Below are positions 51,606 to 52,691 of a stretch of 64,000 nt of DNA, piece by piece. This DNA comes from Escherichia phage A73. The translations under genes and the position numbers were made by a program. The DNA lies in sequence record OP778609. One strand, given 5' to 3'. Under the pieces are notes generated by a model. That model had not been told where the DNA came from and did not search any database. It worked only from the letters and a program-made list of their open reading frames with translations. Positions within the stretch are counted from its first letter, which is position 1, and each line of letters begins with the position of its first letter.

Positions 51606-51862
51606 GTATTGCAATGTTAATCAATACCGTAGAAGAGGCGAAAGCATTAAAGTTACGTGTTGAACTGATTGATCAACCAGGTGGAGATCTCCTTGTACAA
51701 ATCTATCCCCCAAAGGATGATTCTGGCGCTTATGATTGGTGCTACTCTGACACGTTCGAACAAGTAGACATTAAAGCAATAACATCATTTATCAACAGGG
51801 CTATACTTGAGCAAACGATAGAACTTAACGGGATGTTAAAAACACCCTGGCACATTTACTGA
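51602..51862 (+). CDS. hypothetical early protein
   Basis: 86 aa; ATGA overlap; starts MSIAM like the upstream gene. Confidence 0.45.
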   Translation: MSIAMLINTVEEAKALKLRVELIDQPGGDLLVQIYPPKDDSGAYDWCYSDTFEQVDIKAITSFINRAILEQTIELNGMLKTPWHIY

Positions 51863-51871
51863 GTTCGACAA

Positions 51872-51900
51872 AAGGGCTTGACTTGTTCAGCCCTTTTTTG
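51872..51900 (+). terminator. rho-independent terminator
   Basis: AAGGGCT ... AGCCCTT stem followed by TTTTTT. Confidence 0.7.
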
Positions 51901-52038
51901 CTATTCTTATCAAACGGGCGGCACCTGGGAACAGGGGGAGGTAATCACTGGACGACTCCGCTATACAGTGATAGTAAATAGCTATCAATAATCTCCAAAA
52001 ATAAAATAAAACCTATCGAGTCTTTACAATTCTTTCTG

Positions 52039-52067
52039 TTGACACAACAACCGCATTACAGTATTAT
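52039..52067 (+). promoter_or_regulatory. sigma70-like promoter with conserved leader and no downstream ORF for about 300 nt
   Basis: TTGACA-N17-TATTAT and TTATCTCGTAGGG leader; stop codons dense in all three forward frames until the next promoter. Confidence 0.55.
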
Positions 52068-52341
52068 TTATCTCGTAGGGCAGCGAAGCAGTGATGTAAA
52101 GTAGTTACTCTATGATGTAAGTTCTGAGAAGTCGAATCCGATAAAGTATCAGAAAGTTTCTAAGTTTTCGAATCGTCCAGATGAAAAAGGCTGGCAAGTG
52201 TTGAGAAAGGGCACGTTGAGTAAGTCCTGAACAGGGGCGCTCCTAGACACCTTCTACTGAGATTGCGATCGAAGTGTTAAACTGTGAGAAACAAAAGAGC
52301 GCTAGGAAAGAAAGAAACAAGAAAAGAAGTTAAAAAGATTG

Positions 52342-52371
52342 TTGACACAAAAGTAAGTTGTATACTATTAT
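52342..52371 (+). promoter_or_regulatory. sigma70-like promoter
   Basis: TTGACA-N18-TATTAT with TCTCGTAGGG leader. Confidence 0.55.
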
Positions 52372-52415
52372 ATCTCTCGTAGGGCAAACATTCAAAACAT
52401 CAAAAAGGGTACAAA

Positions 52416-52691
52416 ATGTTACAACTTAACGCTAAATTAGACAAAGAAATCACTGAATTTTGGGATATGGTAGTAGCTACTGATGTGGACGGTGTAGCAA
52501 GTCCTTACCTCAATAACATCGAGTATCACAATGTTGCCGCTATCAATGCAGAACACAAAGAGAAAGGCGGTGCTGATAAATTTGCTAAAAGCAATGGCTT
52601 CACTGATGCTAATCACATGATGCAATCAGTATTGTGGCAAGCTCAAGAAGATTTCGAAGAAAAAACTCTTGAATTTGCCAGACGCTCATAA
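52416..52691 (+). CDS. hypothetical early protein
   Basis: 91-aa ORF; followed by GGGCCGAAAGGCCC hairpin. Confidence 0.5.
   Translation: MLQLNAKLDKEITEFWDMVVATDVDGVASPYLNNIEYHNVAAINAEHKEKGGADKFAKSNGFTDANHMMQSVLWQAQEDFEEKTLEFARRS

Follow-up and report, generated by a model that had tools for sequence, protein, structure and literature searches.

A candidate structured RNA with its own early promoter in Escherichia phage A73 and in unrelated virulent coliphages

The DNA analyzed here, a 64,000-nt stretch of the genome of Escherichia phage A73 (OP778609; referred to as the window), represents the early region of an rV5-like myovirus (Vequintavirinae). Between two early promoters it carries a segment that very probably specifies a functional structured RNA on the + strand, and comparative analysis makes this element a well-supported candidate for a previously undescribed RNA family. 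Promoter and RNA together constitute a cassette which, judging from its occurrence, is exchanged horizontally among a subgroup of the Vequintavirinae, the genus Seuratvirus and Rtp-like Drexlerviridae, i.e. among unrelated virulent coliphages.

Promoters, leader and extent of the element

From approximately 40.8 kb onwards, the + strand of the window contains many small genes, several of which are preceded by their own near-consensus promoter. The window's largest gap without genes spans positions 51863–52415 (upstream intergenic region included). The segment of interest and its flanks are 90–96% identical to the corresponding DNA of Escherichia phages A5-4, A7_1, vB_EcoM-LTH01 and UPEC06. The following features delimit the locus:

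52039–52067, + strand: promoter P1 of the RNA gene (TTGACA at 52039–44, 17-nt spacer, TATTAT at 52062–67; 11 of 12 consensus positions)
52068–52084, + strand: start-site region with the shared early leader TTATCTCGTAGGG, which is also found after the next promoter
52286–52329, + strand: polypurine spacer (86% purine) between the RNA and the next promoter, outside the conserved unit
52342–52384, + strand: next early promoter (TTGACA-N18-TATTAT) with leader, serving a 91-aa gene (52416–52691)

P1 is a near-consensus sigma-70 promoter and the best-scoring site within 50–55 kb. Only two sites in the 64-kb window (52039 and 52342) fit the composite pattern TTGACA-N15-19-TANNAT-N1-8-TCTCGTAGGG, and none would be expected from shuffled sequences. 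The two promoter/leader copies form direct repeats 303–304 nt apart, and the promoter at 52342 marks the downstream boundary of the cassette. Promoter geometry places the predicted transcription start near 52070–52075.

A preliminary description of this DNA had pointed to a consensus promoter with a conserved leader, to about 300 nt interrupted by stops in all forward frames up to a promoter near 52342, and to GTTGAG repeats and a polypurine tract within them. All of these features were recovered: the GTTGAG copies start at 52200 and 52215, and the three forward frames of 52068–52341 (~270 nt) contain 7, 5 and 8 stop codons, respectively (20 in total). On the + strand, two ORFs reach 20 aa: one of 21 aa with a TTG start located within the promoter, and a 32-aa GTG ORF that enters the next promoter; no such ORF lies wholly between the two promoters. 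The sole long minus-strand ORF comprises 33 aa.

The conserved unit extends over 219 nt (52074–52292), from the predicted start site to before the polypurine tract. Among four related Vequintavirinae (A73 compared with A5-4, LTH01 and UPEC06) it shows 97–100% identity, vs 88–99% for the flanking genes, so the comparison suggested in the preliminary description comes out in favor of the segment. The 35-nt promoter segment/spacer of P1 is 74–80% identical in LTH01 and UPEC06. Since the polypurine tail, whose length varies among close relatives, shows 73–96% identity, vs 97–100% for 52074–52292, the tract is considered a variable spacer outside the conserved RNA.

A further non-coding block (51874–51960), present as a single copy in the window, is conserved just upstream of the RNA locus. 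It contains a terminator hairpin (GGGCT...AGCCC, then six T) overlapping a promoter-like site, TTGACT-N18-TATTCT, followed by AAACGGGCGGCACCTGGGAACAGGGGGAGG. The block is 79% identical to that of the rV5-like phage RudolfGeigy, in which the adjoining genes align at just 16–61%. Similarity between this upstream intergenic block and the Rtp leader 3′ of the RNA was not significant (13 of 300 shuffles reached an equal score).

Architecture and covariation of the RNA

Comparison of the homologous copies supports a predicted RNA of three parts: a 5′ module, an 88-nt core and a 3′ hairpin with a UNCG-type loop. The predicted elements are as follows:

52082–52106, + strand: unit M1, with a 3-bp outer helix (52082–84/52104–06), GAAG, a CA-GUGA-UG mini-hairpin and UAAAGUA
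52122–52154, + strand: unit M2, with the outer helix UUCUGA/UCAGAA around GAAG, a UCG-AAUC-CGA hairpin and UAAAGUA
52168–52255, + strand: near-invariant 88-nt core common to three phage lineages (85–92% identity)
52177–52194, + strand: core hairpin P2 (CCAG, loop AUGAAAAAGG, CUGG), showing a double change
52198–52214, + strand: candidate core hairpin P3 (GUGUU, loop GAGAAAG, GGCAC), invariant and holding the first GTTGAG
52224–52238, + strand: core hairpin P4a, with a 5-bp stem (GUCCU/GGGGC) and a GAANA pentaloop whose 4th base is C, A or U
52256–52275, + strand: 3′ hairpin P5 (ACU-GA-GAU, loop UGCG, AUC-GA-AGU), its version in the window fitted by eye

The 5′ module is composed of one or two units, each consisting of a helix, a GAA-AGUA loop and a mini-hairpin; Rtp-type copies have one. 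The outer helix of M1 covaries across lineages (AGC/GUU, GG/CC and GGU/ACC), and the GAAGCAG and AAAGUA strings are invariant in Vequintavirinae, Seuratvirus and Salmonella phage SE131. The 6-bp outer helix of M2 is 100% paired and is written in three ways, with three pair types at four of its six pairs. Its inner helix is likewise 100% paired and shows two compensatory pairs. The internal loop of M2, with GAA opposite AGUA, presumably resembles the loop-E motif.

Within the core, at least two hairpins are proven by compensatory changes. In P2 an A-U pair is replaced by G-C through a double change in 4 of 10 sequences, and this must have arisen at least twice, because Rtp differs in this respect from its 95%-identical relative ZL19. 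P4a shows the compensatory changes C-G to U-A and G-C to C-G and also contains G-U pairs; in the metagenome contig L048 all five of its pairs are kept through further changes, while one change disrupts a proposed outer P4 pair. P3 and outer P4 are invariant, so covariation gives no information on them. For these helices, RNAalifold offers an alternative, in which AGA.AGG pairs with CCUUCU, and the proposed P3 loop takes a 1-nt insertion in SLUR75 and WildeMaa and an A-to-C change in L048. In other lineages P5 is composed of 4 bp, a 1-nt bulge and 3 bp below a UNCG-type loop; six variants from outside the Vequintavirinae are 100% paired, and all three variable pairs change on both sides.

Altogether, six helices stay paired through compensatory changes in 95–100% of cells, vs 3–50% in controls with slid partners. 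The values were 94.9% for the core together with M2 (nine pairs changed on both sides; 36–48% with slid partners), 96.9% for the 5′ module with the Salmonella phages included (23–39%) and 100% for the six variants of P5 (3–50%). These figures come from about 13 copies in three to four lineages (effective sequence number 1.07), which makes for thin covariation statistics. The G-U pairs within the covarying helices would be A-C mismatches on the opposite strand, and the + strand agrees with the orientation of the promoter. The predicted folding energy is no better than that of shuffled sequences (MFE z about +1 on both strands). The preliminary description had proposed a noncoding RNA, to be checked by structure prediction with covariation across homologous phages; this proposal is borne out by the six helices and the G-U strand bias, along with conservation above that of the flanks and recurrence behind a promoter across phage families.

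An internal 17-nt direct repeat (52122–52138 and 52158–52174; TTCTGAGAAGTCGAATC and TTCTAAGTTTTCGAATC) is 76% identical; where the core begins, its sequence resembles a degenerate version of the beginning of M2. Rtp-type copies retain GA(A/G)GTCGAATCG immediately at the core. This pair is the sole internal direct repeat, and TRF detected no ToxI-like tandem array (~34–45 nt) within the RNA.

No known family was recognized. The whole window gave no match to Rfam 15 (4227 models) at the gathering threshold, and with E values up to 10 the best match to 51850–52450 was a Drosophila C/D snoRNA model (20.9 bits vs a threshold of 101). The homologous elements of Rtp, SA80RD, SLUR75, L048 and SE131 also remained without an Rfam match, and ARAGORN found no tRNA or tmRNA genes in the window. 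Interpreting the UGAUG...CUGA strings as a C/D box or k-turn was abandoned, as the Seuratvirus copies lack them. In the literature on these phages or on such an RNA, no relevant description was found.

Distribution and transfer of the cassette

A sensitive blastn search of 50,697 phage records yielded 15 records, all from Vequintavirinae, Seuratvirus, Drexlerviridae or Moazamivirus. The 88-nt core is present at 85–92% identity in three Seuratvirus siphoviruses (SA80RD, SLUR75 and Bas23/WildeMaa) and is also found in four Rtp-like Drexlerviridae (Rtp, ZL19, PH1062 and BUCT-XGG-1). Covariance-model scores were 120 bits for the window, 120 bits for Rtp and 96 bits for the metagenome contig L048. 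The identity of the core across lineages could in part reflect recent transfer of the core piece alone. Every core carrier with a named host infects E. coli.

In every copy the element is intergenic, located 3′ of a promoter-like site and co-oriented with the following early genes, and in the lineages compared the GAAGCAG motif starts 10–17 nt past the −10 box. The promoter-like sites lie at an equal distance 5′ of the RNA in SA80RD (TAGACA-N17-TACTAT) and in Rtp (AAGACA-N17-TAATAT, read by eye in the alignment). A TAGACA-N17-TATAGT promoter also precedes the two hairpin units of the 5′ part, without the rest of the RNA, in Salmonella phages of the genus Moazamivirus. In Moazamivirus SE131 (L040, 1–2245) the left end comprises 2.2 kb without annotated genes, and the module, located within 1030–1150, has the same two-hairpin design as the RNA of the window but a different 3′ continuation. 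The 5′ module therefore looks like an independent domain that could be combined with other RNA parts. An SE131-like IMG/VR contig (L045, 5–91, minus strand) carries the 5′ module alone.

Most relatives lack the RNA. About 240 rV5-like phages align to the flanks of the element and are without approximately 350 nt; in RudolfGeigy the RNA is absent and a single promoter directly precedes the homologue of the 52416 gene. Some 190 T1-like phages share 44 nt upstream of the Rtp element, which itself occurs in only four of them, and this upstream homology ends within the promoter spacer. We regard the transferred unit as a promoter-to-promoter cassette, since the upstream repeat of Rtp-type copies is found again after the RNA and relatives without the RNA have a single promoter. 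The repeat in question, AATAGCAC(T5 or GAAAT)G(C/T)TAAA, lies 5′ of the RNA promoter and recurs 3′ of the RNA in Rtp (L003, ~55–75 and ~320–340); the same repeat flanks the RNA in ZL19, PH1062, BUCT-XGG-1 and L048, giving the promoter-to-promoter layout of the window. The second promoter of Rtp looks weak, and the RNA there may be the 5′ end of an early-operon leader of ~400 nt.

This organization recalls the PeSL (promoter-early stem-loop) cassettes of T4-type phages, in which cargo flanked by repeated early promoters is shuffled within hyperplastic early regions. As in PeSL, the unit is flanked by promoter direct repeats (spaced by 303–304 nt) and relatives have one promoter instead; unlike in PeSL, the cargo is an RNA gene and not an ORF, and transfer crosses phage families.

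Downstream proteins fall into different PHROG families in each lineage, and all-against-all blastp of the ORFs of Rtp, SA80RD and the window revealed no protein common to all three. Two annotated Rtp genes, for a polynucleotide kinase and for a T4 Stp-like "activator of PrrC anticodon nuclease" (L055, 1444–1983 and 2432–2524), lie ~2 kb from the RNA, across the divergent control region; any link between these genes and the RNA is pure speculation.

Searches of further collections gave few copies. Blastn of 5,426 E. coli genomes and 72,556 plasmids, with E values up to 0.1, produced no match, and the 26 matches from a pattern scan of genome contigs correspond approximately to the number estimated by chance, none being confirmed by blastn or the covariance model. 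One candidate (L015, 19 bits) was rejected, as it lies inside a 471-aa ORF. Within IMG/VR, Rtp was the sole record with the core and L045 had the 5′ module alone, the other pattern matches being unconfirmed. Of two metagenome scans, the first gave no match and the second one true copy (L048) plus five chance matches in coding regions.

Possible roles of the RNA

We tentatively favor, as the best explanation overall, a mobile structured-RNA gene with a host-directed accessory role. This reading is ranked first because the sporadic, horizontal and immediate-early pattern of the element, absent from most relatives, resembles that of anti-defence and host-takeover genes. The sigma-70 RNA polymerase of the host would transcribe an RNA of ~200–220 nt (52074–52292) from P1 upon entry of the phage DNA. 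In the compared copies the stems of the 5′ module and P5 appear rewritten between lineages, whereas the core, its unpaired stretches included, appears frozen. Since the core is frozen while surrounding stems of the same cassette are rewritten, it most likely binds a partner common to all carriers. As the carriers share almost no proteins and the named core carriers infect E. coli, this partner would most likely be a conserved E. coli component and not a phage protein. The RNA might then help in taking over the host or in countering its defences, be it as decoy, sponge or modulator. Action in trans on a host factor is a possibility we take seriously while stopping short of calling it probable.

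Against a trans role, no lineage has a terminator, which is unusual for a trans-acting bacterial sRNA. In the window, Rtp and SA80RD, the interval from the RNA to the genes that follow contained no + strand intrinsic terminator, and P5 has no U-run on its 3′ side. A terminator-ended, Hfq-type trans-acting sRNA was consequently rejected, for want of a GC hairpin with a U-tract at the 3′ end. Without a terminator, early transcripts would carry the active RNA at their 5′ end, or processing would free it from them. Comparison with E. coli genomes and the rRNA operon did not point to a partner or target in the host. Against the rrnB operon, the best local alignments in sense and in antisense orientation stayed within the range of shuffled sequences; seed pairings shorter than ~16 nt lie beyond the reach of such mimicry and antisense searches. 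Resemblances noted by eye to the L11-binding region of 23S rRNA, 4.5S RNA and the anti-Shine-Dalgarno sequence were dropped as 7–8-mer coincidences.

Among described phage RNAs, the decoys (pseudo-ToxI, RNA anti-CRISPRs) represent the functional class that we favor: they too are accessory, sporadic, early and protein-free. Unlike pseudo-ToxI decoys, the RNA has no ToxI-type tandem repeats, and E. coli chromosomes and plasmids offer no sequence for it to mimic. With 6S RNA it shares the ~200-nt size class, a presumed abundance, a structured character (predicted here) and a plausible target in the host machinery, but it has no Rfam match to 6S and its supported structure contains no long hairpin with a central bubble.

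A cis-acting role of the RNA is possible and almost as likely as the host-directed one. As a leader the RNA would modify its own polymerase or transcript, acting as a put-like antiterminator or anti-pausing RNA, or as a 5′ stabilizer or processing element. The putL and putR RNAs of phage HK022 are protein-free, cis-acting antiterminators that bind the zinc-binding domain of the RNA polymerase beta-prime subunit. In every lineage the RNA starts ~10–17 nt from the start site of an early promoter, and it is always co-oriented with the downstream early genes, with no intervening terminator. The first early gene of Seuratvirus has the RNA as its 5′ UTR; there, and probably in Rtp, the RNA forms the 5′ leader of the early operon, an arrangement that fits a cis role equally well. 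The 5′ module (~75 nt, two covarying stem-loop units) also resembles the published description of putL, which comprises ~70 nt with two stem-loops and lies just downstream of PL (PMC9378689), although the conserved RNA as a whole has 219 nt and Rtp-type copies have one unit. Like put, the RNA is promoter-proximal, structured and situated at the start of early transcription, just 3′ of an early promoter and co-oriented with the operon. Reliance on the host RNA polymerase, a conserved target shared by all carriers, could moreover explain the invariant core; these phage groups are not known to encode an RNA polymerase of their own.

Several observations speak against such a leader. The RNA has no detectable sequence similarity to put, and no HK022-type or other lambdoid phage is among the 15 blastn records; it is about three times longer than put, with an additional 88-nt core and 3′ hairpin, and it occurs sporadically within each lineage, its carriers being virulent and not lambdoid. 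In each lineage the majority of relatives manage without the element, a strong second promoter separates the RNA from the genes in the window, and few canonical + strand terminators are found downstream there. A near-invariant core of 88 nt also exceeds the needs of a stabilizer.

The boxB hairpins of lambda carry a GNRA-like pentaloop (GAAAA or GAAGA) in the same layout as P4a. P4a (52224–52238) thus resembles a lambda-type nut boxB in its 5-bp stem and its GAANA pentaloop with a free 4th base, but this is a resemblance only: no boxA (CGCUCUUA-like; GCTCTT/GCUCUU) is present on the + strand of 52068–52341, where the only GCTCTT lies on the minus strand at ~52296–52301, the compared carriers (Rtp, SA80RD and the window) have no N-like protein in common, and P4a accounts for 15 nt of a conserved RNA of 220 nt.

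Phage genomes are annotated almost wholly as proteins, and few phage ncRNAs have assigned roles (put, oop, c4, pseudo-ToxI and RNA anti-CRISPRs). A covariation-supported RNA with its own early promoter is here common to myoviruses and two siphovirus groups that otherwise share almost nothing. It is conceivable, if doubtful, that this is the first RNA-only accessory module ("moron") traded among unrelated virulent phages, its frozen core engaging a conserved E. coli machine. Two versions of such a module are conceivable: one, unrelated to put, would modify RNA polymerase without the help of a protein, and the other would be a decoy that disarms a host factor of defence or RNA processing in the opening minutes of infection. 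Two carriers, Bas23 WildeMaa (BASEL collection) and Rtp, grow on E. coli K-12. Carriers of this kind would make it directly testable whether phages use transferable RNAs, besides proteins, on their host.

Compared with the host-directed and leader roles, a new ligand-binding (riboswitch-like) or self-cleaving (ribozyme) RNA, in which the core would form the ligand pocket or catalytic site on a scaffold of covarying helices, is improbable. Frozen unpaired nucleotides framed by covarying helices are typical of both classes, and self-cleavage would explain the missing terminator. Nevertheless, Rfam yielded no riboswitch or ribozyme match with E values up to 10, the promoter between the RNA and the next gene in the window means that the RNA is not that gene's only control, and the downstream genes differ between lineages and thus offer no common regulated function.

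Still less credible is an element acting as DNA, such as a recombination cassette, an array of protein-binding sites, or a replication or packaging signal. The promoter direct repeats that bound the cassette, and its location in Rtp and Seuratvirus, where it sits in divergent or control regions, would suit this reading. Against it, the hairpins are kept by compensatory changes, and several of the preserved + strand pairs are G-U, which would turn into A-C mismatches in a cruciform or in the opposite strand; the orientation relative to the promoter is always the same; and most relatives do without the element, which rules it out as a primary origin or pac site.

The preliminary description had also considered a decayed gene and named an intact protein-coding homologue as evidence for it. 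This reading, or that of a set of very small ORFs, is rejected as hardly tenable despite a 7-codon ORF found in all lineages (ATGAAAAAGGCTGGCAAGTGTTGA, 52181–52204) and minus-strand CDSs annotated here in some database records: a pseudogene would not keep 97–100% identity, cross-family exchange or paired compensatory changes, no homologue carries an intact ORF, and the segment is more conserved than the real neighboring genes. Coding is further excluded by the 20 forward-frame stops, by a 1-nt insertion in the core of SLUR75 and WildeMaa, which breaks the 33-aa minus-strand ORF, and by the pattern of substitutions, which are paired and show no 3-nt periodicity. The 7-codon ORF lies in the loop and stem of P2 and would encode MKKAGKC (MK[K/N]AG[K/E]C across lineages); two of its three variable sites are non-synonymous, and, given that it has no Shine-Dalgarno sequence, it is probably incidental.

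Minus-strand hypothetical proteins are annotated over the RNA in A5-4 (A54_101; L001, 3385–3528), UPEC06 (L042, 1550–1642 and 1688–1825) and PH1062 (L006, 1456–1799). In view of the covariation and indel evidence, these calls in several GenBank records are probably spurious.
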